NCBI GenBank assembly: GCA_964016885.1
Contig: OZ024759.1
Span: 4,278,001 to 4,342,000 of the forward strand
Direction: 5' to 3'
Length of the DNA stretch: 64,000 nucleotides
From: Eledone cirrhosa
Lineage: Eukaryota
How positions within the stretch are numbered: the first letter of the stretch is position 1; each line of letters opens with the position of its first letter. The notes under the pieces are model-generated. The model was not told the DNA's origin, searched no databases, and was given only the letters and a program-made list of their open reading frames with translations. Positions 16,512 to 54,339 of the stretch are shown piece after piece. A program made the position numbers and the translations under genes.

Positions 16512-16558
16512 TTATTTGCAGTAGTTCCAACGTAAAAGACTTTCATAATAGTTGATCA
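16512..16558 (-). CDS. Candidate terminal exon of the multi-EGF gene, (V)INYYESLLRWNYCK*
   Basis: Branch-like CCTAAC and TTATTTATAG acceptor at 16559-16560; phase 1 matches the upstream EGF exon; stop overlaps AATAAA. Confidence 0.55.
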
Positions 16559-16934
16559 CTATAAATAACAGTTAGGAAAACCAGATAAAGTACATGTGGA
16601 GATAGAAAGAAGTAGACGGAGGGTCCTGTAAGGAACAGGTGCAAGTTTGCTTCCTTGCAAATACTTCTGTCTACATCTACCTTTCTCCTGAGATACTTTA
16701 CTACCCACATTAACCTGTCACCTGTGGTCCATTACTGTCTACCAGGAATAATAATTGTTTCTACTTTAGGCACAAGGTCAGCAATTATCCCAGTGTATTA
16801 CTGGTACTTTATTTTATCGACCACGTAAGGATGAAAGGCAAAGTTAACTTCGGTGGGATTTGAACTCAGATTGTAAAGGGACATAACTATGCTGGAAAGC
16901 ACGGCATCCGACTCTCTACTGATACTGCCATAAT

Positions 16935-17340
16935 ATAGTTAGACTAGTTAGAAGTAGAAATAAAAGACTATTAAACATATGTAGTCATTAATAATATAGT
17001 TATACTAGTTAGTGGTAAAAGTGAAAGAGTAATACACCTATGTAGTCATTAATAATATAGTTATACTAGTTAGTAGTAAAAGTAAAAGAGTAATAAACCT
17101 ATGTAGTCATTAATAATATAGTTATACTAGTTAGTAGTAAAAATAAAAGAGTATTAAACATATGTAGCCATTAATAATATAGTTATACTAGTTAGTAGTA
17201 AAAGTGAAAGAGTAATACACCTATGTAGTCATTAATAATATAGTTATACTAGTTAGTAGTAAAAGTAAAAGAGTAATAAACCTATGTAGACATTAATAAT
17301 ATAGTTATACTAGTTAGTAGTAAACGTAAAAGAGTATTAA
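16935..17340. repeat. 61-bp AT-rich minisatellite (~6.5 copies) abutting an exon donor
   Basis: Unit TATGTAGTCATTAATAATATAGTTATACTAGTTAGTAGTAAAAGTAAAAGAGTAATAAACC. Confidence 0.93.
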
Positions 17341-17346
17341 ACCAAC

Positions 17347-17484
17347 CAGTTTGACAATCAGTTCCTATATAGCCTGGTTCACCGTTGCCCTCTTCACAAA
17401 CACCATTGGTTCTGTTGCAGTATTTACTTTCTTCACAATGACAAACCTTTTGACAGTTAGACCCAAAAGTATTGCTTGGACAGA
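17347..17484 (-). CDS. EGF-like exon CPSNTFGSNCQKVCHCEESKYCNRTNGVCEEGNGEPGYIGTDCQT (7 Cys)
   Basis: 138 nt, CAG acceptor, GTTGGT donor, phase 1-1, open frame. Confidence 0.88.
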
Positions 17485-17694
17485 CTGGATGAAATAAAGG
17501 ATCAAACAGAAATTTAGTAAATTTAACCCTTTAGCATTTACATTACTTTATATATATATACTATTGTATTTTTACAGTAAACACTTTATCACATATTATG
17601 GAATCTACGAGATTTTGATGATGATATTATTTATTTTGAGAAGAATACCTTAATGTCAGTATTGGTGACCGGTTATTGAAAGAAGTCAATATAT

Positions 17695-20406
17695 AACCCA
17701 TTAGCATTTACATTACTCATAGACATTCAATGTAGAAGAGAACTGGGAGTTCCTAAAAAATAACTTACTAGAGGCAACGGATGAGGTCTGTGGCTGGAGT
17801 AAGACCTCAAGCAGGAGGAGAGTGACTTGGTGGTGGAACAATAAGGTATATGAGGCAGTTAAGGCCAAGAGACAGGCATGGAAAGAATGGAAGAACGGGG
17901 GGAGCAGGGTAAATTACATAGAGAACAAGAGGGAAGCTAGGCGACAAGTATACTTAGCTAGGAGGGAAGCAGAGGATAGAAAATTCAAGCATGTTTTGCA
18001 ATGTAAGGACCAGAAACAGGAGGTGTTCAAGATTGCGAGGCAGTGTGTCAGAGAGAATTGTGATGTCATTGGAGAGAAGTGTATCCGGAATGATAAAGGT
18101 GAGCTTGCCCTCACAAGTGCTGAGAAGAAAGATGCATGGAAGAGTCATTATGATAGATTACTAAATGAGGAGAATGCATGAGAAGAAGAGACCCTACCCC
18201 AAGTAGACCCTACAGAGGGGCCAGCAGTACAAGTCAGCAGCAGCGTAGTAAGTAAGGCAATCAAAGATATGAAGATGGGGAAGGCAACCGGTCCATCGGG
18301 TATAGCTGCTGAGATGCTGAAGGCATCTGGGTCTGTAGGTCACACTATAACCACACGTATTGTTAACCAGGTAATACTAGAAGGTGTCATACCAAAAGAT
18401 TGGTGCAGTAGCATTATTGTCAACTGCTACAAAGGTAAAGGTGATGCACTAGATAGAGGAAACTATAGAGGTATAAAGCTGATGGACCAGGTCATGAAAG
18501 TAACAGAAAGAGTTATAGCACAGTTGATTAGGGACCGGGTGAAACTAGATGAGATGCAATTTGGGTTTGTACCAGGAAGAGGCACCACTGATGCCCTCTT
18601 CCTTGTGAGGCAGTACAGGAAAAGTACCTAGCTAAAAGCAAGCCACTCTACCTGCCATTTGTCGATCTCGAGAAAGCCTTTGACAGAGTTCCACGTGCTG
18701 TAATCTGATGGGCTCTTAGAAAACTAGGAGTAGATGAATGGCTTGTGAAAGCGGTACAAGCCATGTATAGGGGAGCAGTCAGCAAAGTTAGGATTAGCAA
18801 TGAGTATAGCGAGGAATTTAGCGTACAGGTTGGGGTCCACCAGGGCTCTGTTCTTAGCCCCCTCCTGTTCATCATAGTCATGCAGGCAATAACGGAGGAG
18901 TTTAAGACCGGATGCCCATGGGAACTCCTGTATGCTGATGACCTCGCACTTATAGCTGAATCTATGGTAGAGCTAGAGAAGAAATTCCAAACTTGGAAGC
19001 AGGGACTAGAAAGAAAGGGTCTCAAAGTCAACATGATAAAGACTCAGGTCCTTGTAAGTAGACGAGAAAACAGAACCCAGATCCCCTCAGGGAAATGGCC
19101 TTGCTCAGTATGTAGGAAAGGTGTAGGTAGGAACTCCATTCCCTGCCCCAAATGCAAACAATGGGTACACAAGAGATGTAGCGGGATCTCAGGAAGCTTA
19201 ATTAAGAATGTAGGCTTCACATGCAGCAGCTGTGCTGGAACAGCACGCAGCAAAAAGCCACAGGAAACAAGTACCACCAATCTCTCGGAGGGCTCTGTAG
19301 AAAGAGTAGACAGCTTCTGCTACCTAGGTGACCGAATTAGCAGCGGAGGTGGGTGTTCAGAAAGTACAATAACTAGGGTAAGAACGGGATGGAAGAAGCT
19401 TAGGGAACTACTACCACTGCTAGCTGCAAAAGGCTTTTCCCTCAAAATGAAAGGCAGACTGTATGATGCGTGTATCCGAACAGCAATGTTGCATGGTAGT
19501 GAGACCTGGGCGCTGAAGGTGGAAGACTTATGTAGATTAGAGAGAAACGAAGCCTGCATGCTCCGATGGATGTGTAACAGTAATATACGCGAACGACAAA
19601 GCATAAATGAATTGAGAGAGAGACTGAGCATAAGAGGAATCAAATGCTGTGTGCAGGAGAGGCAGTTGCGTTGGTATGGACATGTGATGCGTATGAAGGA
19701 TGACAGCTGCATAAAAAGGTGCAGAGCACTAGAAGTCGATGGAAACCGCGGAGTGGGGAGACCCAAGATGACCTGGGATGAGGTGATAAAAACCGACCTT
19801 ACCCAATTCCACCTCTCAAAGGCGATGACACATGACCGTGACCTCTGGCGCCTCGCAGAAATACAGAGTACCCGACCTCCCATGGGTACAAGCTGATGCA
19901 TATAGACAATAAGCCCCCACACCCCCCACTTCAAGGTGGTCGTGGAGGTGCCACGGCAAAAAGCACCCAGCCCACACTGTAAAGTGGACGTGTAGGCAAC
20001 ACGAAAAAGCACCCAGCACTCACTGTAAATTAGGTTGGTGTTAGGAAGGGCATCCAGCTGTAGAAATCAAGCCAAATCAGTTCCTGTATGAGCAAAGCAT
20101 AGTCAGCCGACCAGACACTGCCCACAACAGGACAATCCGTCTAACCCATGCTAGCGTGGAAGAACGGACGTAAAACGGTGATGATGATGATGATGATGAT
20201 GACTCTATATATACTATTGTATTTTCATGGTAAAGGCTTTACCTCACATAAGTATCTCATAATGTCGAATCTATGAGATTTTGATTTTATCTATTTTGAG
20301 AAGAATACCTTAATGTCAGTATGAGTGGCCAGTTATGGCCGGTTTCAACAGAAAGAGGTGAGAGGATTCTGGTCAGATATGGCCGGTTTAAATGCTAAAG
20401 GGTTAA
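17695..20406. mobile_element. piggyBac-type MITE interrupted by an RTE insertion (partial sister copy at 17523-17690)
   Basis: Ends TAA-CCCATTAGCATTTA and TAAATGCTAAAGGG-TTAA; the internal sequence resumes after the RTE tail. Confidence 0.7.
17719..20201 (+). mobile_element. 5'-truncated RTE LINE, diverged subfamily, degenerate
   Basis: ORF pieces 17822-18181, 18269-18631 and 18745-19896 are homologous to 10182-12563; (GAT)n tail; ACTC on both sides. Confidence 0.93.
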
Positions 20407-21457: not shown

Positions 21458-21595
21458 AAGCTTGGCAGTCATGACCAGTAAAACCAGGTAGACACTTGTT
21501 GTTTGGACAGTGTCCAGTTTTAGGGTTACAGTTTGCACTGTCCTTGCATTTACAGGGATTTGAACAATGGACACCAAAATAACCAGCTTTACACA
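21458..21595 (-). CDS. EGF-like exon CKAGYFGVHCSNPCKCKDSANCNPKTGHCPNNKCLPGFTGHDCQA
   Basis: 138 nt, TTTTAACAG acceptor, GTTAGT donor, phase 1-1, 8 Cys. Confidence 0.9.
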
Positions 21596-24405: not shown

Positions 24406-26884
24406 CATTTTGGCAGTTTCTTCCTTGTACTGCACTGAGCTACAGCGCCCAAACTGGCATGAGATGTATAACTCTGGAGATGTGAACTCTATACTCCAGA
24501 GCATCCTGGACTCAATATGGATAGCGTGTGCAGCATCAGTGCCACAGAAGCGGAAAAATAACCACCCCAAAAGTGCAATCTGGGAAACTTCAGCGGTCCG
24601 ACTTGCCAGGAAAGAACGTCGGAACGCTGAACGGGAATATAAACTGCATAGATCAGATGCCAACAGAAAAAAGTGGAATAAATCTTCTAACCATCTCAAG
24701 CAAGTGACAAAGAAGGCAGTGCTTGAATTTGAACAGTGCATCGCAACCAATCCTGACAGTAAGGTGTTCTGGAAATATGTTCATTCAAAGCAGAGACCTC
24801 ACTCTCCAGTTGGTCCTCTTCGCAATCCCCACACAAGCCAGATCACTGACGATCCCAAGGAATGCGCAGAACTCATTGCTGAGTGCTATGCAAGTATTTT
24901 TACTGTTGAAAACCAGAATGTACCATCTTCACCATCTCTAACATCAAATTCCATAACAACTATGGAATTTACACCTGCAATGTTGCGACGTCACCTTAAG
25001 AATAAGCGCAACTATGCCTCCCCTGGTCTTGATGGTGTGACATACCTGCTTCTCAAACGTGGCGGGGATTTCCTTTTGCGCCAGCTTTCTTTTTTCTTTC
25101 AATACTGTCTCTGCAATGGTGCTACTCCGGAGCAGTGGAAAACTGCCAGTGTCATTCCCCTGTTCAAAAAGGGCAACCGCATGTCACCTGTCAACTATCG
25201 TCCAGTCAGTCTTACTAGCTGTATGGCCAAACTGATGGAATCCTGTGTCAGAGAAACACTTTGGAACTTCTGGAGCTCTCACAGCCTCATCCGGCCCTCA
25301 CAGTTTGGATTTATCCCTAACTCCAGCTGCTGTGATCAGCTTATCGAGTTCCTTGAGGACATCACCCGGATCACTGACAGCGGCTCATGGGTGGATTTTG
25401 TTTATCTTGACTTTGCTAAGGCTTTTAATTCTGTGCCACACAAAAGACTTATGGCAAAACTCTCTGCAATGGGTGTGAGGGATGATCTTTTCGACTGGCT
25501 GAAATCCTTCATTCTCAGCCGAAAGGAAGTAGTCACGGTTCTAGGACAGCATTCTTCACCATATGAGATGTCATCTGGTGTACCACAGGGATCTGTTCTT
25601 GGTCCTCTTTTGTTTGTGGCATATATTAATGACATAGATGCCAACTTACAGAATGCCACGGTACTAAAATATGCAGATGACATCAAGCTGTACCTTGAAA
25701 TCAAAAGGACTGATCCTGAAATTTACAACTCTTTCCTACAATCAGACCTGGACACAATGCAGCAATGGATCACAGACTGGCAACTGAAGCTGGCTGTGGA
25801 CAAGTGTACCACCATGCATTTTGGAAGGAAAAATCCAGCGTCCACATACTCCCTCCACAACACTGACATCAAAAAGTCCTCTTGTGAACGTGACCTGGGC
25901 ATTACTGTCAGCAACGATTTCCGTTGGACAAAGCATGTCTCTAAGATTGTCAAGAAGGCCGAGGGTGTCTTGGCATCACTCAGCAGGATCTTTGTTAGCC
26001 GCTCTCCAGCCATCTATTTAAAACTGTATACAGCTATGGTGCGACCACACTTGGAATTCGCATCATCAGTCTGGAACCCCTATCTTGCTCGGAACATTGA
26101 CCTCCTGGAAACTGTTCAGAGACGTGCAACCAAGCGCATACTCTCCATCAGACACCTACCATACTCTGAACGCCTTGCTTCCCTGGGCATGGATTCATTG
26201 AAGCTCCGACGTCTGGCAATGGACTTGGTGAATACCCACAAAGTTTTTAACCATCTCGCCAACTGCAACCCTGAGCGCCTCTTTGATCTCCATGTGTCTA
26301 ACACACGTGGACATGCCTACAAGATAAGAAAACAGCACAGCTCCCATGACTTTCGCAGACATTTTTTCACGCTCAGAGTTGCTGAAGCATGGAACAAACT
26401 GCCTGCGTCAATTGTTAGCTGCCGAGACACTGCATCCTTTAAGACACTCATGCTTCCCGAAATACGCCAAAACTACACCTGATGTGCCCCTTCCATACAC
26501 ATGCACACATGTGTGTATCATGACTCGTGCACTGTTCATTTTACTGATGTTTGTGCATTGCCCTATGTACTGTACATGCACTTTTTTGATGGGTTGTGGG
26601 GCACCTGGGCACTGTGCACAATATTTCATTATTGTTATTGTTATTATATCATGACTCATACACTGTTTATTTTCCTGACATTTGTACATTATTCTATGTA
26701 CTATACATGCACCTTTGATGAGTTGTAGTGCACCTGAGCACTGTACACAATAATTTCATTATTATTATAAAACCAGCAACACATCTTCCGTCAGAACATA
26801 TTCCTGTCACTGAGTCACATTTGTTGCTGTCTACACAGTGACATATACCTTCACAGTTGCTGCCAAATCTACCATTCTGGCAGA
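24406..26884 (-). pseudogene. EGF-like exon copy split by a CR1 insertion (pieces 26769-26884 and 24406-24426)
   Basis: The two pieces total 137 nt and match exon 28265-28402 with one base lost at the junction. Confidence 0.93.
24427..26768 (+). mobile_element. Young 5'-truncated CR1 LINE
   Basis: Uninterrupted RT frame to 26482 (YRPVSLTS, YLDFAKAF, GVPQGSVLGPLLF, YADD, ERDLG, RPHLEFA, WNKLP); partly duplicated 3' UTR and (ATT)n tail; no TSD. Confidence 0.95.
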
Positions 26885-27171: not shown

Positions 27172-27309
27172 CTGTTTGACAGTTGTTACCTTTATAGCCA
27201 GGTGTACACCCACCACTCGAACAGGTACCAGATTTAGGGTTACACGTGCTATTGTCATAGCAGTGACAGCTATAGCTACAATCTTTACCAAACTTGCCAC
27301 TGGAGCACT
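27172..27309 (-). CDS. EGF-like exon CSSGKFGKDCSYSCHCYDNSTCNPKSGTCSSGGCTPGYKGNNCQT (duplicate copy)
   Basis: 138 nt, TTTCAG acceptor, GTGAGT donor; appears identical to 28690-28827. Confidence 0.88.
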
Positions 27310-28264: not shown

Positions 28265-28402
28265 CATTTTGGCAGTTTCTTCCTTCAAAACCAGCAACAC
28301 ATCTTCCGTCAGAACATATTCCTGTCACTGAGTCACATTTGTTGCTGTCTACACAGTGACATATACCTTCACAGTTGCTGCCAAATCTACCATTCTGGCA
28401 GA
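28265..28402 (-). CDS. EGF-like exon CQNGRFGSNCEGICHCVDSNKCDSVTGICSDGRCVAGFEGRNCQN
   Basis: 138 nt, AAG acceptor, GTGAGT donor, phase 1-1. Confidence 0.9.
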
Positions 28403-28689: not shown

Positions 28690-28827
28690 CTGTTTGACAG
28701 TTGTTACCTTTATAGCCAGGTGTACACCCACCACTCGAACAGGTACCAGATTTAGGGTTACACGTGCTATTGTCATAGCAGTGACAGCTATAGCTACAAT
28801 CTTTACCAAACTTGCCACTGGAGCACT
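28690..28827 (-). CDS. EGF-like exon CSSGKFGKDCSYSCHCYDNSTCNPKSGTCSSGGCTPGYKGNNCQT
   Basis: 138 nt, TTTCAG acceptor, GTGAGT donor. Confidence 0.92.
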
Positions 28828-30429: not shown

Positions 30430-30567
30430 CTGTCTGACAATTGCTACCTTGATAGCCAGCTTCACAGCCACCACTGGAACATACACCTGTGATGGGGTCA
30501 CACTTGCTGTTGTTGGCACAGTGACATGAGTTAATACAGTTGTCACCAAATTTACCACTTCTACACT
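30430..30567 (-). CDS. EGF-like exon CRSGKFGDNCINSCHCANNSKCDPITGVCSSGGCEAGYQGSNCQT
   Basis: 138 nt, CAG acceptor, GTGAGT donor. Confidence 0.92.
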
Positions 30568-39264: not shown

Positions 39265-39519
39265 CTGTGGAAATAAAAATATGAGAACAATGACAATAAC
39301 AACAACATATAACACTATACAAGATAATGCTTTCTGATTTAGGCACAAGGCCAGCAATTTTAGGGGAGGAGAAAATCAATTAAATCGACCCCAGTGTGTG
39401 ACTGGTACTTCATTTTATCAACCCTGTTGGGATGAAAGGGATAGCTACCACAATTCTATCATCTATATTATAGCGTTGTCATCTATACTATATCTATATC
39501 ATCTGAACTATATTTGTAT

Positions 39520-40245
39520 CATCTTAATTTCCATGTTTCTAACACCCATGGATATGCCTACAAAGTCAGAAAACAGCACAGCTCCCATGACTTTCGGAAT
39601 CATTTTTTCAAGCTCCGAGTTGCTGAAGCATGGAACAAACTACCTGCATCAGTTGTTAGCTGTCGAGACACTGCATCCTTTAAAACCTCCATGGAACAAA
39701 CTGCCTGCATCAGTTGTTAGCTGTCGAGACACTACATCCTTTAAAACCTTCATGGAACAAACTACCTGCATCAGTTGTTAGCTGTCGAGACACTGCATCC
39801 TTTAAAACCTCCATGGAACAAACTACCTGGATCAGTTGTTAGCTGTCGAGACACTACATCCTTTACAACCTCCATGGAACAAACTACTTGCATCAGTTGT
39901 TAGCTGTCGAGACACTACATCCTTTACAACCTCCATGGAATAAACTACCTGCATCAGTTGTTAGCTGTCGAGACACTGCATCCTTTAAAACCTCCATGGA
40001 ATAAACTACCTGCATCAGTTGTTAGCTGTCGAGACACTGCATCCTTTAAAACCTCTATGCTTCCTGAGATTCGTCAACACTGCACCTGATGTCCCCCCTT
40101 CCATACACACGCACACATGTATTCCATGACTCATACACTGTTCCTTTTCCTGACATTTAAACATTATTCTATGTACTATACATGCACCTTTGATGAGTTG
40201 TAGTGCACCTGAGCACTGTACACAATAATTTCATTATTATATTAT
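39520..40245 (+). mobile_element. CR1 3' fragment containing a 61-bp tandem expansion (~7 copies, 39629-40060)
   Basis: Unit CATGGAACAAACTACCTGCATCAGTTGTTAGCTGTCGAGACACTGCATCCTTTAAAACCTC is the CR1 WNKLPASVVSCRDTASFKT segment. Confidence 0.92.
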
Positions 40246-40414
40246 TTTATACTCCAGTGGTATGACCTAAACTATATATAATCCATACTATATCTATACA
40301 ATCTATATGATTTCCGTAACATCGATATTATGTCTATATACTTGCCGATTCTCTACACTCCATACCAATGTTATACTATATATTCATGAGGCTATAATAT
40401 CCCCTTTATATTGT

Positions 40415-40750
40415 AAGCACATAGCTTAGAAGTTAGAGCATTGGCCTTGCAATCGAAAGGTTGTGAGTTCAATTCTCAGACCGGGTGATGTGTTGTTTCC
40501 TTGAGCAAGACACTTTATTTCACATTGCTCCAGTTTACTCAGCTGTAGAAATGAGATGATAGGGACTGGGGTCAATATCATTCCACTGCAAAGTGGTCCT
40601 CGAGGTGCCACGGCAAAAAACACCCAATACTCACTGTAAATGAGGCTGGTGTTAGGAAGGGCATCCAGCTGTAGAAATCAAGCCAGAATCAGTTTCCGTC
40701 CCACCCTTGTAAGCAGGGAAAAGCAGACGTAAAATGATGATGATGATGAT
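40415..40750 (+). mobile_element. tRNA-headed SINE family B with RTE-derived 3' tail
   Basis: A/B-box-like head (..GTTAGAGCATTGGCC..GTGAGTTCAATTC); tail GTTAGGAAGGGCATCCAGCTGTAGAAATC..(GAT)n shared with the RTE 3' UTR at 20040-20200. Confidence 0.85.
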
Positions 40751-40776
40751 TGTAGCTCCAAAACAGTTTAAATCTA

Positions 40777-40885
40777 CCTGTCTCACAGGTGTTACCTTCA
40801 TAACCAGGACTACACTTTCCACTAAAACACACACCTGTCTCTGTGTTACACCTAGCTGTGTGTTACACCTACTGTCATCTTGACT
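40777..40885 (-). pseudogene. Half-exon relic of the EGF repeat (others at ~39020-39095, 47345-47395, 50690-50745, 51879-51960, 52015-52095, 54105-54160)
   Basis: Degenerate ..RCN..TGVC..G.C.PGYEG..C.T segment lacking the 5' half and acceptor. Confidence 0.8.
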
Positions 40886-40927
40886 CAATATATCATGTTA
40901 GAAACAAAGCTATACTACACCACTTAC

Positions 40928-41065
40928 CTGTCTGACAGTTGCTACCTTCATAACCAGCAGTACATCCTCCACTAGAACACATACCTGTCTGTTTGTTACA
41001 CCTGTTATTATCAGCACAGTGGCATGTGTGTTTACAGTTAGCTCCAAATTTACCAATGTGACAGG
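40928..41065 (-). CDS. EGF-like exon CHIGKFGANCKHTCHCADNNRCNKQTGMCSSGGCTAGYEGSNCQT
   Basis: 138 nt, TTACAG acceptor, GTAAGT donor. Confidence 0.9.
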
Positions 41066-41140
41066 CTGTAATATGAAATGTAATGTAAACAGTTTGAACA
41101 ATTTCAAGATATAATATTTAGAATTATTAACCTTTTTGAT

Positions 41141-42290
41141 TAAGTAGAAATATGGTAATGAAAGGGTTAATGATATAGACAGTGTCTTTAAGTAGAGATA
41201 TGTAATGAAAGGGTTAATAACATAGACAGTGTCTTTAAGTAGAGATATGTAATGAAAATGTTAATGACATAGACAGTGTCTTTAAGTAGAAATATGTAAT
41301 GAAAGGTTTAATTACATAGACAGTGTCTTTAAGTAGAAATATGTAATGAAAGGTTTAATGACATAGACAGTGTCTTTAAGTAGGAACTTGGTAATGAAAG
41401 GTTTAATGACATAGACAGTGTCTTTAAGTAGAAATATGGTAATGAAAGGTTTAATGACATAGACAGTGTCTTTAAGTAGAAATATGGTAATGAAAGGTTT
41501 AATGACATAGACAGTGTCTTTAAGTAGAGATATGTAATGAAAGGGTTAATGACATAGACAGTGTCTTTAAGTAGAAATATGTAATGAAAGGTTTAATGAC
41601 ATAGACAGTGTCTTTAAGTAGAAATATGTAATGAAAGGTTTAATGACATAGACAGTGTCTTTAAGTAGGAACTTGGTAATGAAAAGTTTAATGACATAGA
41701 CAGTGTCTTCAAGTAGAAATATGGTAATGAAAGGTTTAATGACATAGACAGTGTCTTTAAGTAGAAATATGGTAATGAAAGGTTTAATCACATAGACAGT
41801 GTCTTTAAGTAGAAATATGTAATGAAAGGTTTAATGACATAGACAGTGTCTTTAAGTAGGAACTTGGTAATGAAAGGTTTAATGACATAGACAGTGTCTT
41901 CAAGTAGAAATATGGTAATGAAGGGTTTAATGACATAGACAGTGTCTTTAAGTAGAAATATGGTAATGAAAGGGTTAATGACATAGACAGTGTCTTTAAG
42001 TAGAGATATGGTAATGAAAGGTTTAATGACATAGACAGTGTCTTTAAGTAGAAATATGGTAATGAAAGGTTTAATGACATAGACAGTGTCTTTAAGTAGA
42101 AATATGGTAATGAAAGGATTAATGACATAGACAGTGTCTTTAAGTAGAAATATGGTAAAGAAAGATTAAATGATATAGACAGTGTCTTTAAGTAGAGATA
42201 TGGTAATGAAAGGGTTAATGACAGAGACAGTGTCTTTAAGTAGAAACTTGGTAATGAAAGGTTTAATGACATAGTCTATGTCATTAAACC
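41141..42290. repeat. 47/48-bp minisatellite (variant ..CTTTAAGT..)
   Basis: Unit AGAAATATGGTAATGAAAGGTTTAATGACATAGACAGTGTCTTTAAGT; related short array at 42630-42822. Confidence 0.94.
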
Positions 42291-42838
42291 TTAATCCAAA
42301 TATTCAATTACTTTCAAGCAAGAAACAAATGCAAATATCCAACTAACTTGAATTTTCCATCGGATTTTAAAATTATTTTACGTATTTTTGCTATATTAGT
42401 TTTTTTAACTTAATATTATTATTTTTCTATTGTATTTCTTTATAATTATGTGAATACAAAAATATTTTATGTTGTAACTTTTTATGTTAAATAATAAATG
42501 ACTATAAAACTATACAAAAACTATAATAATTTCACAAAAGTCGCATTTATAGGTATATCAACTTATGCGGCCTCCTTTATTACTGCCTAATTTAAATGTG
42601 GCCTCTAATGGTAAAAAGGTTCCTCTCCTCTGACATAGACAGTGTCTTTCATTAGAAATATGGTAATGAAAGGGTTAATGACATAGACAGTGTCTTTCAT
42701 TAGAAATGTGGTAATGAAAGGGTTAATGACATAGACAGTGTCTTTTATTAGAAATGTGGTAATGAAAGGGTTAATGACATAGACAGTGTCTTTCATTAGA
42801 AATATGGTAATGAAAGGGTTAATTACTACACCATATAC

Positions 42839-42976
42839 CTGTCTGACAGTTGCTACCTTCATAACCAGCAGCACATCCTCCACTAGAACACACACCTGTC
42901 TGTTTGTTACATTTACTGTTGTCAGCACAGTGACATGTGTTGCCACAGTTGGCTCCAAATTTACCTGATTTACAGA
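42839..42976 (-). CDS. EGF-like exon CKSGKFGANCGNTCHCADNSKCNKQTGVCSSGGCAAGYEGSNCQT
   Basis: 138 nt, TTTCCAG acceptor, weaker GTATAT donor. Confidence 0.78.
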
Positions 42977-43084
42977 CTGGAAATAAAATATGAGAACAAT
43001 GACAATTATAACAACATTTACACTATACAAGATAATAAATATCACAATATTATATCATCTATATTATAGTGTTGTCATCTATAC

Positions 43085-46000
43085 CAGAGGTCGGCATCCT
43101 TTTGGGGTGTGCGGGCCACATTGCTATGGAGTGTCACACAGGCAGGCCACATTTCTATGCAGTGTCTCACTGGCAGGCCACGTTGTTACGAAGTGTCTTG
43201 TCAGTTGCTCACATTGTTATACAGTGTCTTGTCAGCAGGCCACATAGCTATGGAGTGTCTCACCAGCAGGCCACATTGCTATACAGTGTCTTGTCAGCAG
43301 GCCACATAGCTATACAGTGTCTTGTCAGCAGGCCATATTGCTATGGAGTGTCTCACCAGCAGGCCACATAGCTATGGAGTGTCTTGTCAGCAGGCCACAT
43401 AGCTATGGAGTGTCTCGCCAGCAGGCCACATAGCTATGCAGTGTCTTGTCAGCAGGCCACATTGCTATGCAATGTCTTGTCAGCAGGCCACATTGCTATA
43501 GAGTGTCTTGTCAGCAGGCCACATAGCTATGGAGTGTCTCACCAGCAGGCCACATTGCTATGCAGTGTCTCACCAGCAGGCCACATAGCTATGTAGTGTC
43601 TCACCAGCAGGCCACATAGCTATACAGTGTCTTGTCAGCAGGCCATATTGCTATGCAGTGTCTTGTCAGCAGGCCACATAGCTATGGAGTGTCTCACCAG
43701 CAGGCCACATTGCTATGCAGTGTCTCACCAGCAGGCCACATTGCTATGTAGTGTCTCACCAGCAGGCCACATTGCTATGTAGTGTCTTGTCAGCAGGCCA
43801 CATTGCTATGCAGTGTCTTGTCAGCAGGCCACATAGCTATGGAGTGTCTCACCAGCAGGCCACATAGCTATGCAGTGTCTCACCAGCAGGCCACATAGCT
43901 ATGCAGTGTCTCACCAGCAGGCCACATAGCTATGCAGTGTCTTGTCAGCAGGCCACATAGCTATGCAGTGTCTCACCAGCAGGCCACATTGTTACGAAGT
44001 GTCTTGTCAGTTGCTCACATTGCAATACAGTGTCTTGTCAGCAGGCCACATAGCTATGGAGTGTCTCACCAGCAGGCCACATAGCTATACAGTGTCTTGT
44101 CAGCAGGCCACATAGCTATACAGTGTCCTGTCAGCAGGCCACATAGCTATGGAGTGTCTCACCAGCAGGCCACATAGCTATACAGTGTCTTGTCAGCAGG
44201 CCACATAGCTATACAGTGTCTTGTCAGCAGGCCATATTGCTATGGAGTGTCTCACCAGCAGGCCACATAGCTATGGAATGTCTTGTCAGCAGGCCACATA
44301 GCTATGGAGTGTCTCACCAGCAGGCCACATAGTTATGCAGTGTCTTGTCAGCAGGCCACATAGCTATACAGTGTCTTGTCAGCAGGCCACATTGCTATAG
44401 AGTGTCTTGTCAGCAGGCCATATTGCTATGCAGTTTCTCACCAGCAGTCCACATAGCTATGTAGTGTCTTGTCAGCAGGCCACATAGCTATACAGTGTCT
44501 TGTCAGCAGGCCACATTGCTATAGAGTGTCTTGTCAGCAGGCCATATTGCTATGCAGTTTCTCACCAGCAGTCCACATAGCTATGTAGTGTCTTGTCAGC
44601 AGGCCACATTGCTATGCAGTGTCTCACCAGCAGGCCACATTGCTATGCAGTGTCTCACCAGCAGGCCACATTGCTATGCAGTGTCTTGTCAGCAGGCCAC
44701 ATAGCTATGGAGTGTCTCACCAGCAGGCCACATAGCTATGTAGTGTCTTGTCAGCAGGCCACATAGCTATACAGTGTCTCACCAGCAGGCCACATTGCTA
44801 TGTAGTGTCTCACCAGCAGGCCACATTGCTATGTAGTGTCTTGTCAGCAGGCCATATTGCTATGCAGTTTCTCACCAGCAGGCCACATAGCTATGTAGTG
44901 TCTTGTCAGCAGGCCACATTGCTATGCAGTGTCTTGTCAGCAGGCCACATAGCTATGGAGTGTCTCACCAGCAGGCCACATAGCTATGCAGTGTCTCACC
45001 AGCAGGCCACATAGCTATGCAGTGTCTTGTCAGCAGGCCACATAGCTATGCAGTGTCTCACCAGCAGGCCATATTGCTATGTAGTGTCTCACCAGCAGGC
45101 CACATAGCTATGGAATGTCTCACCAGCAGGCCACATAGCTATGGAGTGTCTCACCAGCAGATCACATAGCTATGGAGTGTCTCACCAGCAGGCCACATAG
45201 CTATGTAGTGTCTTGTCAGCAGGCCACATTGCTATGGAGTGTCTCACCAGCAGGCCACATTGCTATGTAGTGTCTCACCAGCAGGCCACATTGCTATGTA
45301 GTGTCTCACCAGTAGGCCACATAGCTATGGAGTGTCTCACCAGCAGATCACATAGCTATGGAGTGTCTCACCAGCAGGCCACATAGCTATGTAGTGTCTT
45401 GTCAGCAGGCCACATTGCTATGGAGTGTCTCACCAGCAGGCCACATTGCTATAGAGTGTCTCACCAGCAGGCCACATAGCTATGCAGTGTCTCACCAGCA
45501 GGCCACATTGCTATGCAGTGTCTTGTCAGCAGGCCACATTGCTATGCAGTGTCTTGTCAGCAGGCCACATAGCTATGCATTGTCTCACCAGCAGGCCACA
45601 TAGCTATGCAGTGTCTCACCAGCAGGCCACATAGCTATGTAGTGTCTCACCAGCAGGCCACATAGCTATGTAGTGTCTCGTCAGCAGGCCACATAGCTAT
45701 AGATTGTCTCACCAGCAGGCCACATAGCTATGTAATGTCTCACCAGCAGGCCACATAGCTATGTAGTGTCTTGTCAGCAGGCCACATAGCTATGGAGTGT
45801 TTCACCAGCAGGCCACATAGCTATGTAGTGTCTCGTCAGCAGGCCACATAGCTATGCAGTGTCTCACCAGCAGGCCACATTGCTATGTAGTGTCTTGTCA
45901 GCAGGCCACATAGCTATGCAGTGTCTCGTCAGAAGGCCACATAGCTATGTAGTGTCTTGTCAGCAAGCCACATAGCTATGCAGTGTCTCACCAGCAGGCC

Positions 46001-47067
46001 ACATAGCTATGTAGTGTCTCATCAGCAGGCCACATAGCTATGCAGTGTCTCACCAGCAGGCCACATTGCTATGTAGTGTCTTGTCAGCAGGCCACATAGC
46101 TATGTAGTGTCTCACCAGCAGGCCACATTGTTATGTAGTGTCTCACCAGCAGGCCACATTGCTATGCAGTGTCTTGTCAGCAGGCCACATAGCTATGTAG
46201 TGTCTCACCAGCAGGCCACATAGCTATGGAGTGTCTTGTCAGCAGGCCACATAGCTATGCAGTGTCTCGTCAGCAGGCCACATAGCTATGTAGTGTCTTG
46301 TCAGCAAGCCACATAGCTATGTAGTGTTTTGTCAGCAGGCCACATAGCTATGTAGTGTCTTGTCAGCAGGCCACATAGCTATGTAGTGTCTCGTCAGCAA
46401 GTCACATAACTATGTAGTGTCTCGTCGGCAGGCCATGATATCAAATAAGTAATGAGAACATATGTAAAAATGAATGCAGTAATATAATAAAATACTCTGA
46501 CATTTTTAATAAACTCTGACAAAGCCATGACACCTGACAGTGTATTTAAACCAGGGTTGCCATTTGTTCATTGAACATATTTACTTCTAATAATACTGAA
46601 CACTTTTAACATAGAAAAATAAATAAACATTGATTATTATCAAATACAAACCCTTACAGATATTTTGCTACCAGACAGTTAACTAAAATGAACAATTTTG
46701 AGGATGAAATGAAATAACTATGTCAGACATACTGACTTTTTTAGGTAAGTCTGGGTCATTTCACATCACTGCCATACAGATACTATGTATGTACATATAT
46801 ACATGAATACACACACACAGTCCCTTTGACCTCGATGTCTGACTATTCTATCTCTCTGAGTTTGATTGTTTCTTACTGTCACATTAAAACATTACGTTCA
46901 GTTAAGTGAGTCTTGAGGTTAGACGTGTTCTCTAGTTGGTATTTTAATCCCAAATAATTCAGAACACTTTTTCAGGGATCGCTTAGTCTAAGATTGAAAC
47001 CTGTCGGCAGGCCAGATGTGGCCCGCGGGCTAGATGTTCCCACGGGCCAGGGATTTAATGACCCCTA
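43085..47067. mobile_element. Non-autonomous hAT (Charlie-like) element containing a 31-bp satellite
   Basis: Ends CAGAGGTC.. and ..GACCCCTA; 8-bp TSD ATCTATAC at 43077-43084 and 47068-47075; subterminal GCGGGCC/GGCCCGC motifs. Confidence 0.85.
43110..46435. repeat. 31-bp satellite (~105 copies)
   Basis: Unit CAGCAGGCCACATAGCTATGCAGTGTCTTGT with a CTCAC variant. Confidence 0.96.
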
Positions 47068-47429
47068 ATCTATACTATAGTGATATCAACTATTTTATAT
47101 CTATATCATCTGTACTATATCCCTACAACCTATATTATATCTATAGCTGTACTATATCTATTCCTCTATATTATATCTATTGAAGGCGCAAGGATTAGTG
47201 GTAAGAGCGTCAGGCTTACAATCATAAAGTTGTGAGTTCGATGCCTGAATCTTGCTGTGTTTTGTGTTCTTGAACAAGTCACTTTATTTCATGTTGCTCA
47301 AGATACTCAGCTATAGAAATGAGTTGTGATGTCACACTTTCAATGGGAACACACACCTGTCTCTAAGTTACACCTGCTGTTGTTTTGTTTCAATATATTA
47401 TGCTACAACAAAGTTATGCTACATCACTT

Positions 47430-48180
47430 ACCTTATTAGAAATATGGTAATGAAAGGGTTAATGACATAGACAGTGTCTTTCATTAGAAATATGGTAATG
47501 AAAGGGTTAATGACATAGACAGTGTCTTTCATTAGAAATATAGTAATGAAGGGGTTAATAACATAGGTAGTGTCTTTAATTAGAAATATAATAATGAAGG
47601 GGTTAATGACATAGACAGTGTCTTTCATTGGCAATATGGTAATTAAAGGGTTAATGACATATACAGTGTCTTTCATTAGAAATATGGTAATGAAAGGGTT
47701 AATGACATAGACAGTGTCCTTCATTAGAAATATGGTAATGAAAGGGTTAATGACATAGACAGTGTCTTTCACTAGAAATATGGTAATGAAAGGGTTAATG
47801 ATATAGGTAGTGTCTTTCATTAGAAGTATTGTAATGAAAGGGTTAATGACATAGACAGTGTCTTTCATTAGAAATATGGTAATGAAGGGGTTAATGACAT
47901 AGACAGTGTCTTTCACTAGAAATATGGTAATGAAAGGGTTAATGATATAGGTAGTGTCTTTCATTAGAAATATTGTAATGAAAGGGTTAATGACATAGAC
48001 AGTGTCTTTCATTAGAAATATGGTAATGAAAGGGTTAATGACATAGACAGTGTCTTTCATTAGATATATGGTAATGAAAGGGTTAATGACATATATAGTG
48101 TCTTTCATTAGAAATATGGTAATGAAAGGGTTAATGACATATACAGTGTCTTTCATTAGATATATGGTAATAGAAAGTTT
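47430..48180. repeat. 48-bp minisatellite (..CTTTCATT.. variant)
   Basis: Unit AGAAATATGGTAATGAAAGGGTTAATGACATAGACAGTGTCTTTCATT. Confidence 0.95.
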
Positions 48181-48198
48181 AATTACTATACTATTTAA

Positions 48199-48336
48199 CT
48201 CTCTGACAGTTGCTACCTTCATAACCAGCAGCACATCCTCCACTAGAACACACACCTGTCTGTTTGTTACATTTACTGTTGTCAGCACAGTGACATGTGT
48301 TGCCACAGTTGGCTCCAAATTTACCTGATTTACAGA
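48199..48336 (-). pseudogene. EGF-like exon copy with destroyed donor site
   Basis: Open 138-nt frame almost identical to 42839-42976, but ACAG|GTA is replaced by AGAG|TTAAAT. Confidence 0.75.
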
Positions 48337-48444
48337 CTGGAAATAAAATATGAGAACAATGACAATTATAACAACATTTACACTATACAAGATAATAAAT
48401 ATCACAATATTATATCATATATATTATAGTGTTGTCATCTATAC

Positions 48445-50415
48445 CAGAAGTCGGCATCCTTTTGGGGTGTGCGGGCCACATTGCTATGGAGTCTCACACA
48501 GGCAGGCCACATTGCTATGCAGTGTCTCACTGGCAGGCCACATTGTTGGGAAGTGTCTTGTCAGTTGCTCACATTGCTATACAGTGTCTTGTCAAGCAGG
48601 CCACATAGCTATGTAGTGTCTTGTCAGCAGGCCACATTGCTATGGAGTGTCTTGTCAGCAGGCCACATTGCTATACAGTGTCTTGTCAGCAGGCCACATA
48701 GCTATGTAGTGTCTTGTCAGCAGGCCACATTGCTATGGAGTGTCTTGTCAGCAGGCCACATTGCTATACAGTGTCTTGTCAGCAGGCCACATAGCTATGG
48801 AGTGTCTCACCAGCAGGCCACATAGCTATACAGTGTCTTGTCAGCAGGCCACATAGCTATGGAGTGTCTTGTCAGCAGGCCACATTGCTATACAGTGTCT
48901 TGTCAGCAGGCCACATAGCTATGGAGTGTCTCACCAGCAGGCCACGTAGCTATGTAGTGTCTTTTCAGCAGGCTACATAGCTATGGAGTGTCTCACCAGC
49001 AGGCCACATTGCTATACAGTGTCTTGTCAGCAGGCCACATAGCGATGCAGTGTTTCAGCAGCAGGCCACATAGCTATGCAGTGTCTTGTCAGCAGGCCAC
49101 ATAGCTATGGAGTGTCTTGTCAGCAGGCCACATAGCTATGCAGTGTCTCACCAGCAGGCCACATAGCTATGGAGTGTCTCACCAGCAGGCCACATTGCTA
49201 TGCAGTGTCTCGTCAGCAGGTCACATAGCTATGCAGTGTCTCACCAGCAGGCCACATAGCTATGTAGTGTCTCGTCAGCAGGCCACATAGCTATGTAGTG
49301 TCTCACCAGCAGGCCACATAGCTATGTAGTGTCTCGTCAGCAGGCCACATAGCTATAGAGTGTCTCACCAGCAGGCCACATAGCTATGTAGTGTCTCGTC
49401 AGCAGGCCACATAGCTATGCAGTGTCTTGTCAGCAGGACACATAGCTATGCAGTGTCTCACCAGCAGGTCACATAGCTATGTAGTGTCTCGTCAGCAGGA
49501 CACATAGCTATGCAGTGTCTCACCAGCAGGCCACATTGCTATGTAGTGTCTCCTCAGCAGGCCACATAGCTATGCAGTGTCTTGTCAGCAGGCCACATAG
49601 CTATGGAGTGTCTCACCAGCAGGCCACATAGCTATGTAGTGTCTTGTCAGCAGGCCACATAGCTATGGAGTGTCTCACCAGCAGGCCACATAGCTATGCA
49701 GTGTCTCATCGGCAGGTCACATAGCTATGTAGTGTCTTGTCAGCAAGCCACATTGCTATGTAGTGTCTCGTCGGCAGGCCATGATATCAAATAAGTAATG
49801 AGAACATATGTAAAAATGAATGCAGTAATATAATAAAATACTCTGACAATTTTAATAAACTCTGACAAAGCCATGACACCTGGTAGTGTATTTAAACCAG
49901 GGTTGCCATTTGTTCATTGAACATATTTACTTCTAATAATACTGAACACTTTTAACATAGAAAAATAAATAAACATTGATTATTATCAAATACAGTCCCT
50001 TACAGATGTTTTACTACCAGACAGTTAACTAAAATGAACAATTTTGAGGATGAAATGAAATAACTATGTCAGACATACTGACATTTTTAGGTAAGTCTGG
50101 GTCATTTCACATCCCTGCCATACAGATACTATGTATGTACATATATACACGAATACACACACACAGTCCCTTTGACCTCGATGTCTGACTATTCTATCTC
50201 TCTGAGTTTGATTGTTTCTTACTGTCACATTAAAACATTACGTTCAGTTAAGTGAGTCTTGAGGTTAGACGTGTTCTCTAGTTGGTATTTTAATCCCAAA
50301 TAATTCAGAACACTTTTTCAGGAGATTGCTTAGTCTAAGATTGAAACCTGTCGGCAGGTCAGATGTGGCCCGTGGGCCAGATGTGGCCTATGGGCCAGGG
50401 ATTTAATGACCCCTA
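48445..50415. mobile_element. Duplicate copy of the hAT element with a shorter 31-bp satellite (48470-49780)
   Basis: Same ends, same ATCTATAC TSD and same flanks as 43085-47067. Confidence 0.85.
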
Positions 50416-50779
50416 ATCTATACTATAGTGATATCAACTATTTTATATCTATATCATCTGTACTCTATCCCTACAACCTATATTATATCTATAGCTATAC
50501 TATATCTATTCCTCTATATTATATCTATTGAAGGCGCAAGGATTAGTGGTAAGAGCGTCAGGCTTACAATCATAAAGTTGTGAGTTCGATGCCTGAATCT
50601 TGCTGTGTTTTGTGTTCTTGTACAACTCACTTTATTTCATGTTGCTCAAGATACTCAGCTATAGAAATGAGTTGCGATGTCACACTTTCAATAGGAACAC
50701 ACACCTGTCTCTAAGTTACACCTGCTGTTGTTTTGTTTCAATATATTATGCTACAACAAAGTTATGCTACATTACTTAC

Positions 50780-51860
50780 CTTATTAGAAATATGGTAATG
50801 AAAGGGTTAATGACATAGACAGTGTCTTTCATTAGATATATGGTAATGAAAGGGTTAATGACACAGGCAGTGTCTTTCATTAGAAATATGGTAATGAAAG
50901 GCTTAATGACATAGAGTGTCTTTCATTAGAAATATGGTAATGAAAGGGTTAATGACATAGACAGTATCTTTCATTAGATATATGGTAATGAAAGGGTGAA
51001 TGACATATACAGTGTCTTTCATTAGATATATGGTAATGAAAGGGTTAATGACATAGACAGTGTCCTTCATTAGAAATATGGTAATGAAAGGGTTAATGAC
51101 ATATACAGTGTCCTTCATTAGAAATATGGTAATGAAAGGGTTAATGACATAGACAGTGTCTTTCATTAGAAATATGGTAATGAAAGGGTTAATGACATAG
51201 AGTGTCTTTCATTAGAAATATGGTAATGAAAGGGTTAATGACATAGACAGTATCTTTCATTAGATATATGGTAATGAAAGGGTGAATGACATATACAGTG
51301 TCTTTCATTAGATATATGGTAATGAAAGGGTTAATGACATAGACAGTGTCCTTCATTAGAAATATGGTAATGAAAGGGTTAATGACATAGACAGTGTCTT
51401 TCACTAGAAATATGGTAATGAAAGGGTTAATGCCATATACAGTGTCTTTCACTAGAAATATGGTAATGAAAGGGTTAATGACATATACAGTGTCTTTCAT
51501 TAGATATATGGTAATGAAAGGGTTAATGACATAGACAGTGTCTTTCATTAGAAATATTGTAATGAAAGGGTTAATGACATATACAGTGTCTTTCATTAGA
51601 TATATGGTAATGAAAGGGTTAATGACATAGGTAGTGTCTTTCATTAGAAATATGGTAATGAAAGGGTTAATGACATAGGTAGTGTCTTTCATTAGAAATA
51701 TGGTAATGAAAGGGTTAATGACATAGACAGTGTCTTTCATTAGATATATGGTAATGAAAGGGTTAATGACATATATAGTGTCTTTCATTAGAAATATGGT
51801 AATGAAAGGGTTAATGACATATACAGTGTCTTTCATTAGAAATATGGTAATAGAAAGTTT
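50780..51860. repeat. 48-bp minisatellite
   Basis: Same unit as 47430-48180. Confidence 0.95.
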
Positions 51861-52138
51861 AATTACTATACTACTTAACTCTCTGACAGTTGCTACCTTC
51901 ATAACCAGCAGCACATCCTCCACTAGAACATACACCTGTCTCTATGTTACACCTGATGTTGTTTTGTTTCAATATATTAAGCTACAGACTAAGCTATACT
52001 ACACAACACACTTTATTGGAACACACACCTGTCTCTGTGTTACATCTCGCTGTTTGTTACACCTCTCTGTATGTTACACCTGCTGTTGTCTTGACCCACT
52101 ATATTAAGTTATAAACAAAGCTATACTACACCACTTAC

Positions 52139-52276
52139 CTGTCTGACAGTTGCTACCTTCATAACCAGCAGTACATCCTCCACTAGAACACACACCTGTC
52201 TGTTTGTTACATTTACTGTTGTCAACACAGTGACATGTGTTGCCACAGTTGGCTCCAAATATACCATTTCTACAGA
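52139..52276 (-). CDS. EGF-like exon CRNGIFGANCGNTCHCVDNSKCNKQTGVCSSGGCTAGYEGSNCQT
   Basis: 138 nt, TTTCCACAG acceptor, GTAAGT donor. Confidence 0.9.
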
Positions 52277-52344
52277 CTGTGGAAATAAAAATATGAGAAC
52301 AATGACAACAACAACAACATATAACACTATACAAGATAATCATC

Positions 52345-52860
52345 ATCCTCATCATTACCATTTAATGTCCATTTTCTATGCTAGCATGGGTTAGATATAC
52401 TGTCCCATTGTGAGAAAAGTTGGGTCAGATGGCCATGTCTTGCTTATGCAGAACTGATTTGGGATTGGTTTTGATGGCTGGATGCCCTTCCAAATGCCAA
52501 CCACTTTACAGTGTGGACTGGGCACTTTTTGTTGTGTCACCAACTTGGCCACTTTACAATGAGAGCTGAGCACTTTTTGTTGTGGCATTATCACAACCAT
52601 TTTACAGTGTGTGCTGGGCACTTTTTGTTGTGGCACTATCACAAGCACTTTATAGTGTGGGCTAGGCACTTTTTGTTGTGGCACTATCACAAGCACTTTA
52701 TAGTGTGGGCTGGGCACATTTTGTTGTGGCACTGTCACAACCACTTTACAATGAGGGCTGGGCACATTTTGTGTCACCAACATGACCACTTTATAGTGTG
52801 GGCTGGGCATTTTCGTTGTGGCACTATCGCAACCACTTTACAGCGTGGACTGGGGACTTG
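52345..52860 (-). mobile_element. RTE 3'-UTR-type fragment with ~49-bp tandem repeats (52500-52850)
   Basis: GGATGCCCTTCC..CCAACCACTTTACAGTGTGG motif of the RTE tail, reiterated. Confidence 0.7.
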
Positions 52861-53019
52861 AGTAGGGCAGTTGCATGGGTATTGAGGAGGTAGATTTAGG
52901 GGCATGGGTGAGGGGTGGGGATTTAGTAGCTCACTGAACTTTCTTCAACCCATTCTCACACTGGCTACTGTGCTTTCAGAACACCTTCCTCCACTGCAAG
53001 TAACAGAAACTATGTACCA

Positions 53020-53214
53020 CTTCTTCATAACCAGCACCACACCCTCTACTGTAACACACCTGTCTTACAGTTGCTATCTTCATAACCATCACCACACACT
53101 TCACTGGAACACACACCTGTCTCTGTGTTACATCTAGCTGTTTGTTACACCTGCTGTTGTTAGTACAGTGACATGTGTGTTTACAGTTAGGTCCAAATTT
53201 ACCTGTTTTACACC
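53020..53214 (-). pseudogene. Degenerate EGF exon with internal insertion, followed by a proto-satellite unit
   Basis: TTTTCAG acceptor, CKTGKFGPNCKHTCHCTNNSRCNKQ, then a frameshifting duplication; continues into GACAGGTGTGTTACAGTAGAGGGTGTGGTGCTGGTTAT. Confidence 0.8.
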
Positions 53215-53377
53215 CTGAAAATAAAAATATGGAATGTTCTGCATGAGTATGCGGTCGAAGGACAGCTCCTTGCTCCGATAAATCATGTCACTTCTAACAC
53301 ATGTAGCATACATGTTTCCCTTCCATGTAATAACCCAATATATTAAGTTAGAAACAAAGCTATACTACACCACTTAC

Positions 53378-53514
53378 CTGTCTGACAGTTGCTACCTTCA
53401 TAACCAACAGCACATCCTCCACTAGAACACACACCTGTCTCTTTGTTACACCTGCTGTTATCAGCACAGTGTCATGTGTATTTACAGTTGGGTCCAAATT
53501 TACCTGTTTACAGA
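53378..53514 (-). pseudogene. EGF pseudo-exon (137 nt; 1-bp deletion and TGT>TGA)
   Basis: Compared with 54202-54339, one A is missing after TGTAAA and Cys14 is TGA; both splice sites are still canonical. Confidence 0.85.
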
Positions 53515-53604
53515 CTGTGGGTATTAAATATGAGAACAATGACAATTATAGCAACATATAACACTATACAAGATAATAAATATCATAATTATATCATCTA
53601 TATA

Positions 53605-53935
53605 TATGGTGGCACATAGCTTAATGGTTAGAGCATTGGCCGTGCAATCGAAAGGTTGTGAGTTCAATTCTCAGACCGGGTGATGTGTTGTTTCCTTGAG
53701 CAAGACACTTTATTTCACATTGCTCCAGTTTACTCAGCTGTAGAAATGAGATGATAGGGACTGGGGTCCCTATCATTCCACTGCAAACTGGTCGTGGAGG
53801 TGCCAAGAATGCACCCAGTACTCACTGAAAATAAGGTTGGTGTTAGGAAGGACATCCAGCTGTAGAAATCAAGCCAGAATCAGTTTCCGTCCCACCCTCG
53901 CAACCAGGGAAAAGTGGACGTAAAATGATGATGAG
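53605..53935 (+). mobile_element. SINE family B copy
   Basis: Homologous to 40415-40750. Confidence 0.87.
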
Positions 53936-54201
53936 TCTAACCCATGCTGGTGTGGAAGATGGACGTTAAACGAAGATGATGATGATATTATAGTGTTGTC
54001 ATCTATGATATAGTGATATCATCTATACTATATCTCTACAACCTATATGATATCTATATCATCTGTATTATATCTATATCATCTGTATTATATCTATATC
54101 ATCATAACCAGCAACACACCTGTCTCTGTCTGTTTTTTTACACCTGCTGTTGTTTTGTTTCATATATCAAGGTAGAAACAAATCTGTACTACAGTACTTA
54201 C

Positions 54202-54339
54202 CTGTTTGACAGTTGCTACCTTCATAACCAGCAGCACATCCTCCACCTGAACACACACCTGTCTCTTTGTTACACCTGCTGTTATCTGCGCAGTGACATG
54301 TGTATTTACAGTTGGCTCCAAATTTACCTGTTTTACAGA
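54202..54339 (-). CDS. EGF-like exon CKTGKFGANCKYTCHCADNSRCNKETGVCSGGGCAAGYEGSNCQT (most 5' exon found)
   Basis: 138 nt, TTTTCAG acceptor, GTAAGT donor. Confidence 0.92.

Follow-up and report, generated by a model that had tools for sequence, protein, structure and literature searches.

An array of EGF exons in Eledone cirrhosa as a unit of a young duplicon family that very probably derives from an intact receptor-like gene

A 64,000-nt stretch of the genome of Eledone cirrhosa that carries an array of EGF exons, positions 4,278,001-4,342,000 of contig C20 (hereafter the window), was scanned for exons and compared with the whole genome of 3.0 Gb, in searches in which only the best candidates were scored and common words were skipped. 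Very probably the window belongs, as one unit, to a young duplicon family that stems from an intact gene on contig C22 (the source gene), with the copies likely being pseudogenes and the stalk encoded by the source likely lengthening. Judged from its sequence, the window is a twice-deleted unit of a tandem array and not a gene, and we are strongly inclined to regard it as a pseudogenic fragment. A preliminary description had taken the window for a gene in its own right, but what was found is a fragment without a start or an end, the corresponding end exons being single-copy on C22.

By profile and BLAST scans 16 full-length or near-full-length EGF exon copies were found in the window between 17,347 and 54,339, all on the minus strand. 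Twelve of them are 138 nt long, bounded by AG and GT, of phase 1-1 and free of stops, yet one of these twelve, exon q (17,347-17,484), has lost a Cys (Cys34 to Gly). The remaining four are disabled, each differently, by a 1-nt deletion with a TGA, by a 17-nt insertion, by loss of the donor, and by truncation to 116 nt. These scans bear out the exon set described earlier, namely 16 copies, twelve intact and four disabled in four ways, with half-exon relics among them, but not the start of the array at 16,512, as no EGF exon was found between 16,512 and 17,346. The array consists of the following features.

54202..54339, minus strand: EGF exon e, intact; first fragment exon in the window unit, from the scan and genome matches
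53378..53514, minus strand: EGF exon f, dead through a 1-nt deletion and a TGA; the C22 source has it intact
53060..53214, minus strand: EGF exon g, dead (17-nt insertion, frameshift); dead in the source too
52139..52276, minus strand: EGF exon h, intact
48199..48336, minus strand: duplicate of exon i, donor lost
42839..42976, minus strand: EGF exon i, intact
40928..41065, minus strand: EGF exon j, intact
39127..39264, minus strand: EGF exon k, intact
33453..33590, minus strand: EGF exon l, intact
30430..30567, minus strand: EGF exon m, intact
28690..28827, minus strand: EGF exon n, intact
28265..28402, minus strand: EGF exon o, intact
27172..27309, minus strand: duplicate of exon n, intact; within a 1,518-bp-offset duplication (99.0%)
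26769..26884, minus strand: duplicate of exon o, cut short at 116 nt; window-only
21458..21595, minus strand: EGF exon p, intact
17347..17484, minus strand: EGF exon q, frame intact, with Gly in place of Cys34; the exons of the window unit end here
39009..54154 (span), minus strand: eight half-exon relics, at 54098-54154, 53023-53066, 52003-52095, 51882-51963, 50681-50732, 47333-47384, 40779-40860 and 39009-39096
34952..39061, minus strand: 54-bp minisatellite, 76 copies, from a 3' half-exon relic

The membership of the window in a family is seen from exon e, for which there were 19 matches at 99-100% among the best 40 of 358 candidates, on five contigs and about 120-130 kb apart on C20. The 464 kb around the window hold four units, A, B (the window), C and D, and these four, out of at least 26, were read whole. 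A unit is about 110-130 kb in size and is made up of an internal fragment of about 76 kb of the C22 gene and a spacer, the remaining 40-50 kb, which is rich in transposons and contains a Helitron. Units C and D start with a Cys exon and an EGF exon, followed by an F-type-lectin-like exon. For the lectin exon there are 27 matches at 98-100% (all 27 candidates scored), of which C20 holds 14, C27 8, C16 and C23 two each, and C22 one. Exon r, the last exon shared with the source, was matched 34 times at 97-100%, the matches being spread over seven contigs (best 40 of 135 candidates). Internal exons of the source thus recur 27-34 times in the genome compared to its ends, where exon 2, the first exon past exon r and the membrane exon each gave 1 match of 1 candidate. 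We estimate the family at no fewer than 26 near-identical fragment copies, headless and tailless, that together make up about 3 Mb.

The lectin-like domain is present in the source and in full units and absent from the window unit, and none of the exon, splice and profile scans of the window picked up a head, a lectin exon or a membrane exon. The lectin exon and the first EGF exons are missing at the first of the two junctions below, and exon r at the second.

55135..60833, unstranded: 5' deletion junction; the spacer that belongs to the upstream unit reaches to about 60,833 and homology to a source intron begins at 55,135, with pieces of long interspersed nuclear elements (LINEs) and repeats between
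9259..16130, unstranded: 3' deletion or replacement by which exon r was removed; contains an element with reverse transcriptase (RT) and GIY-YIG domains and a LINE with RT and PHD domains

Scans of the spacer for splice sites, hydropathy and profiles gave no convincing signal, membrane or phosphatase exon between units; one hydrophobic candidate exon proved to be sequence like a long terminal repeat (LTR). Exon sets, lesions and minisatellite lengths are private to each of the four neighbouring units. The 1,518-bp-offset duplication of exons n and o in the window, for example, is in none of units A, C and D nor in the source. The 54-bp minisatellite is, as far as its unit tells, an amplified half-exon relic, and its unit word occurs twice in the source compared to 34 times in unit A, 72 in B, 204 in C and 129 in D; across copies there are 34-222 repeats, again compared to 2 in the source, and a further array lies at C20:4189413-4201395. 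By motif counts in the upstream stretches of seven dispersed copies, exon q is found in six and exon p in four. A second exon-derived array, with a 38-bp unit, lies near C20:4,184,800-4,186,100, and in unit A, at a place where several EGF exons are missing, a 17-bp unit is repeated in tandem over 27 kb (C20:4408319-4435329).

The source gene (C22:1,663,979-1,788,847) has 60 canonical exons, 60 of 60 bounded by AG and GT, which form an open frame of 2,818 codons with no stop and 452 Cys. It contains 54 eight-Cys repeats, of which 52 are listed, 50 of these exactly 138 nt long with 8 Cys, and two are of 144 and 135 nt; exon g is a further full-length exon that is dead and was excluded from the 60-exon model. 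Beyond what the copies carry, the source has two upstream exons, twelve EGF exons and one membrane exon, and among the exon r matches listed it is only on C22 that further diverged EGF exons follow. The membrane helix exon (C22:1,788,775-1,788,847) is in frame and was called by hydrophobicity and position. The predicted product is a single-pass receptor with an F-type-lectin-like domain on a 54-repeat stalk, the stalk being a putative long disulfide-bonded rod that would bear the lectin-like domain. One source EGF exon, C22:1761361-1761543, has an in-frame poly-Gly microsatellite insertion and is 183 nt long. With a profile made from 12 homologue tails no phosphatase match was obtained in the 110 kb downstream of the source, although a very distant or divergent exon set would escape, and none of the 94 matches to PF00102 in the genome is near the source or the arrays. 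The idea of a protocadherin-like array spliced to one constant protein tyrosine phosphatase (PTP) tail was dropped, as there is no phosphatase near the arrays or the source. Intronless PTP domains in open frames of 387-1,254 codons were seen at C22:17643413, C14:9149860-9164507 (three in tandem) and C10:12086702.

When the source was compared with units A-D, 52 replacement or stop differences were counted against 14 silent ones. The replacement share expected under neutrality is 0.77, which the observed share fits (p=0.88), and a ratio of nonsynonymous to synonymous rates (dN/dS) of 0.3 is rejected (p=3e-6). All five Cys losses are in copies and none is in the source, and it is likewise the copies that have the frameshifts of exons f and c and the lost donor. 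Divergence between copies and source, calculated without region C22:1,707,500-1,725,500, is 1.0-1.4% in exons and 2.1-2.2% in introns; that the exons are nearer to the source than the introns is as expected if only the source is constrained. Within the source, dN/dS is 0.31 for 27 young exons and 0.29 for an array of 18 exons, and among the young exons none of the 16 first and second positions of Cys codons varies, compared to 31 of 74 others (p=8e-4). By these measures the source is under purifying selection with a dN/dS of about 0.3, and the fragment copies are likely pseudogenes that decay neutrally. They have kept their introns, lack the ends, change neutrally and carry disabling lesions, as is the case in unprocessed pseudogenes.

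Several observations weigh against this reading. Among the copies themselves exons differ by 0.73-1.0% and introns by 1.16-1.25% (five non-independent pairs), so that weak constraint or conversion may be at work, and between units C and D, which overall differ by only 0.11%, there is 1 difference in 2,744 exon positions vs 33 in 30,444 intron positions. The differences between source and copies are not polarised by an outgroup, and two rows are probably mis-paired paralogues. Five differences in exon h are clustered. Exon r has a phase 1 donor and the first copied exon a phase 1 acceptor, and so head-to-tail splicing in frame is possible. In the source the signal-peptide exon, any exons upstream of exon 2 and the cytoplasmic exons were not found, the candidates being weak. 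It is in the light of some of these points that the arrays may be thought of as a silent donor library for gene conversion of the C22 gene, or as being transcribed and joined head to tail by splicing, to give long chains that are soluble or act as decoys, either of which we consider unlikely. Such a library would have at least 26 templates at 98-100% identity, the slightly lower divergence of copy exons than of introns and the clustering in exon h would be consistent with it, and the last and first copied exons are compatible in frame; in addition, variable EGF number in this receptor family is linked to a snail parasite-resistance region (PMC12297450). But the copies accumulate stops, frameshifts and Cys losses, about 2.2% of intron sites differ between the source and any one of the four copies, so that frequent exchange is hard to assume, and neither a promoter nor a signal exon was found in the spacer scans.

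The exon accordion, as read from these comparisons, is real and is sited in the source gene rather than in the window. At C22:1,713,794-1,724,983 there are 18 intact exons that encode 12 distinct peptides, mostly with an alternating spacing of 650 and 524 bp. Of the 18 introns of this array, eleven are matched by a partner that differs by only 0-1.2% and the other seven are at 2.7% or more, and since these eleven are below the capture divergence of 2.2%, much of the young array was probably duplicated or homogenised after the fragment was copied. Units C and D have three exons in this region, two of them broken, and units A and B have none. Changes in exon number should be tolerated in the source because phase 1-1 exons preserve the frame, and it is likely that the stalk lengthens by tandem exon duplication. 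The earlier view that exon number changes by duplication holds, but expansion polarised towards the 5' side does not: in the source gene, exons near the middle are very like their nearest neighbours, whereas towards both ends this identity is mostly 0.57-0.79, so that the full gene is young in its centre and old at both ends, and the polarity of the window comes from truncation. Within the window the 5'-3' gradient of identity does exist, but to call the 5' exons nearly identical was too strong, the nucleotide identity being on average 89% (83-99%) for the six 5' exons and 59% (51-70%) for the six distinct 3' exons.

A probable course of events is that one repeat-mediated duplication put the C22 fragment into a transposon-rich spacer, that unequal crossing-over and ectopic recombination would then have given head-to-tail arrays and later their dispersal, that the units afterwards diverged in the exon sets, lesions and minisatellite lengths seen in the four units, and that 18 central source exons, as their sequence shows, were duplicated or homogenised after the copying. 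The 5' homology starts at C22:1,669,018, inside LTR-like sequence, in six of the eight copies examined; in unit A this breakpoint was not seen at the 95% filter and the C23 copy begins later. Contiguous homology ends at about C22:1,744,700-1,745,100 at a palindromic repeat, identically in all three of three copies with exon r. Gypsy-like pol frames, labelled by eye, are at C20:4119959-4122500 on the spacer side of the 5' breakpoint.

A further question is whether the Helitron of the spacer captured the fragment and spread it by rolling-circle transposition. In the window it is represented by the following.

30..3756, minus strand: Rep/PIF1 frames of the Helitron, interrupted by stops; within the duplicated spacer

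Among the best 40 of 315 candidates, the 36 best Helitron matches (98-100%) are all on duplicon-bearing contigs, mostly 8-20 kb downstream of exon r and in the same orientation, which speaks for such a capture. However, homology crosses both Helitron 3' ends in the five dispersed stretches aligned on C19 and C26 and continues at least 4 kb beyond in the two that were followed, and there is no such Helitron beside the source. Capture is thus quite unlikely, and the Helitron looks like a passenger of the duplicon. Free relatives at 97% are on C2, C3, C8 and C17. The Helitron has two tandem 3' ends, and a third 3'-end-like motif was seen.

That the window is itself a working gene, which diversifies by exon duplication and by cassette skipping of its dead exons, is very unlikely. 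Frame and splice sites are kept in 12 of its 16 exons, all of phase 1-1, and exon sets do vary between units, but no head, lectin or membrane exon is in or beside it, the ratio of replacement to silent changes is neutral, and at an exon divergence of about 1% most exons would stay intact without selection. The dead exons had been held to imply regulated skipping. Two of the four are either intact in the source and broken in copies or broken duplicates private to copies, one is a truncated duplicate that is window-only, and only exon g is dead in the source too; as the lesions are mostly copy-private, nothing demands regulated skipping, and the broken exons and the gradient of the window likely reflect, for the most part, pseudogene decay and truncation rather than regulated splicing.

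Finally, that the arrays are assembly artefacts is most improbable: units C and D differ by just 0.11%, there is a gap atop the C20 array and C16 is small and maybe unplaced or redundant, but units differ by 1.2% with private deletions, insertions and minisatellite lengths, and in DNA contigs of sequencing runs X1-X3, which may come from the assembled individual, copy-type alleles are the majority at a word depth, not equal to copy number, of 645-1,219 and account for nearly all the depth beside exon e. In four unlabelled contig sets on the d-h region of the source no exon-exon joint was found among the matches listed, 15 rows of 721; there are contigs that span introns, and the comparison is uninformative on expression. 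Among the data sets listed as carrying window positions 28,260-30,580 none was of RNA.

The closest known relatives of the source appear to be the molluscan MEGF/galactose-binding-domain (GBD) receptors rather than the MEGF10/Draper group, and we do not file it as a receptor-type PTP (RPTP). Its top homologue is an Octopus sinensis protein with F5/8C, EGF, membrane and PTP parts, and it has the same domain order as the proteins of O. sinensis (P0001), O. vulgaris (P0133) and O. bimaculoides (P0252) and the RPTPs of the Biomphalaria SudRes1 region, that is, an N-terminal Cys module, one EGF repeat, an F5/8C-type lectin-like domain, a run of EGF repeats and one membrane helix. The GBD/F5-8C domain, the EGF repeats and the single helix are present in the source and intracellular PTP domains were not detected within the 110 kb searched, in which it differs from the SudRes1-type RPTPs and is like the phosphatase-less P0252. 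Its lectin exon is just 39-40% identical to those of the named Octopus proteins, and it has 54 repeats; the homologue search with the lectin exon gave one match, at 62%. In the SudRes1 resistance region, clustered paralogues of MEGF/GBD receptors are reported, with rearrangement and loss of EGF domains between haplotypes (PMC12297450). There whole genes are multiplied, whereas here the multiplied unit is a headless fragment.

The lectin exon, a single exon, matches Pfam PF22633 below the cut-off (E 1.2e-4) and F-type lectins in PDB (1k12, 3cqo, 2j22) at E 2.5e-8 to 3e-5. The fucose motif of F-type lectins is a His, 26 residues and Arg-x-Asp-x4-Arg/Lys; by eye, the His of the binding-site region is kept in the source but the aligned Arg residues are not. 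All 11 of 11 exons tested are matched by EGF families of Pfam, below their curated cut-offs, and the eight-Cys repeat matches SCARF1 (8hna, E 6e-12), which upholds the SCARF/MEGF-like repeat type proposed earlier. The proposed family, MEGF10/11 and Draper, does not fit as well. MEGF10/11, Draper and CED-1 have an N-terminal EMI domain, no lectin domain, and cytoplasmic NPxY and YxxL motifs. Of the group of MEGF10/11, Draper, CED-1, PEAR1 and SCARF1, Draper and PEAR1 were among the homologue matches, but those rows have no F5/8C domain, and compared to this group the source has far more repeats, a lectin-like domain and no detected EMI domain (exon 2 has no Pfam match). A recognition-type receptor is nevertheless involved, as had been supposed, by way of the homologues of the C22 source. 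A role in recognition of carbohydrate or pathogen at the cell surface may be inferred from them, with repeat number possibly setting the reach of the receptor.

Other systems resemble parts of this arrangement. Dscam1 is a cassette exon array, with many homologous symmetric exons in one gene as in the source, but here all intact source exons join one open frame with no sign of mutually exclusive choice. Primate NBPF/Olduvai and LPA kringle IV-2 are core duplicons or exon-repeat accordions in which, like in the source, an exon unit is expanded in tandem inside a gene. In the Drosophila tinkering loci (10.64898/2026.08.09.743762), gene fragments are likewise spread by duplication at transposon sequences. 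Unlike in the core duplicons and the tinkering loci, one 76 kb fragment is amplified here as units of 110-130 kb. In the literature searched, with subscription papers mostly outside it, no prior description of the locus was found; the source gene with its fragment copies is a new combination, each part of a known kind.

The C22 gene would be an unusually long member of a family that is tied to a snail parasite-resistance region (PMC12297450), and with recent, selected exon-number change it opens stalk-length polymorphism and ligand to direct testing. Annotation and read mapping would be led astray by its dead copies, of which there are 26 or more, and MEGF immune genes might wrongly be counted as expanded. 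The copies also offer a dated series (0.1%, 1.2% and 2.2%) for exon decay and for the passage from half-exon to minisatellite. Were they a donor library after all, the receptor would be diversified in the way that pseudogene donors diversify antigen or antibody genes.

Two further elements of the window are in the region of the 3' deletion.

14156..15838, plus strand: RT+GIY-YIG frame of 560 codons, Penelope-like
10182..12773, minus strand: RT+PHD LINE

The RT+GIY-YIG element is bounded by a 332-bp inverted repeat of 99% identity (13855-14186 and 15799-16130). Copies of the RT+PHD LINE family are at 10182-12773, 17728-19881, 55483-57226 and 58784-59947, and three of them are 95-96% alike. Outside the window, the assembly gap atop the C20 array adjoins a Helitron-like 3' end, and beyond this gap there is a tandem array of about 10 kb (C20:5304294-5314000) that resembles a short interspersed nuclear element (SINE).

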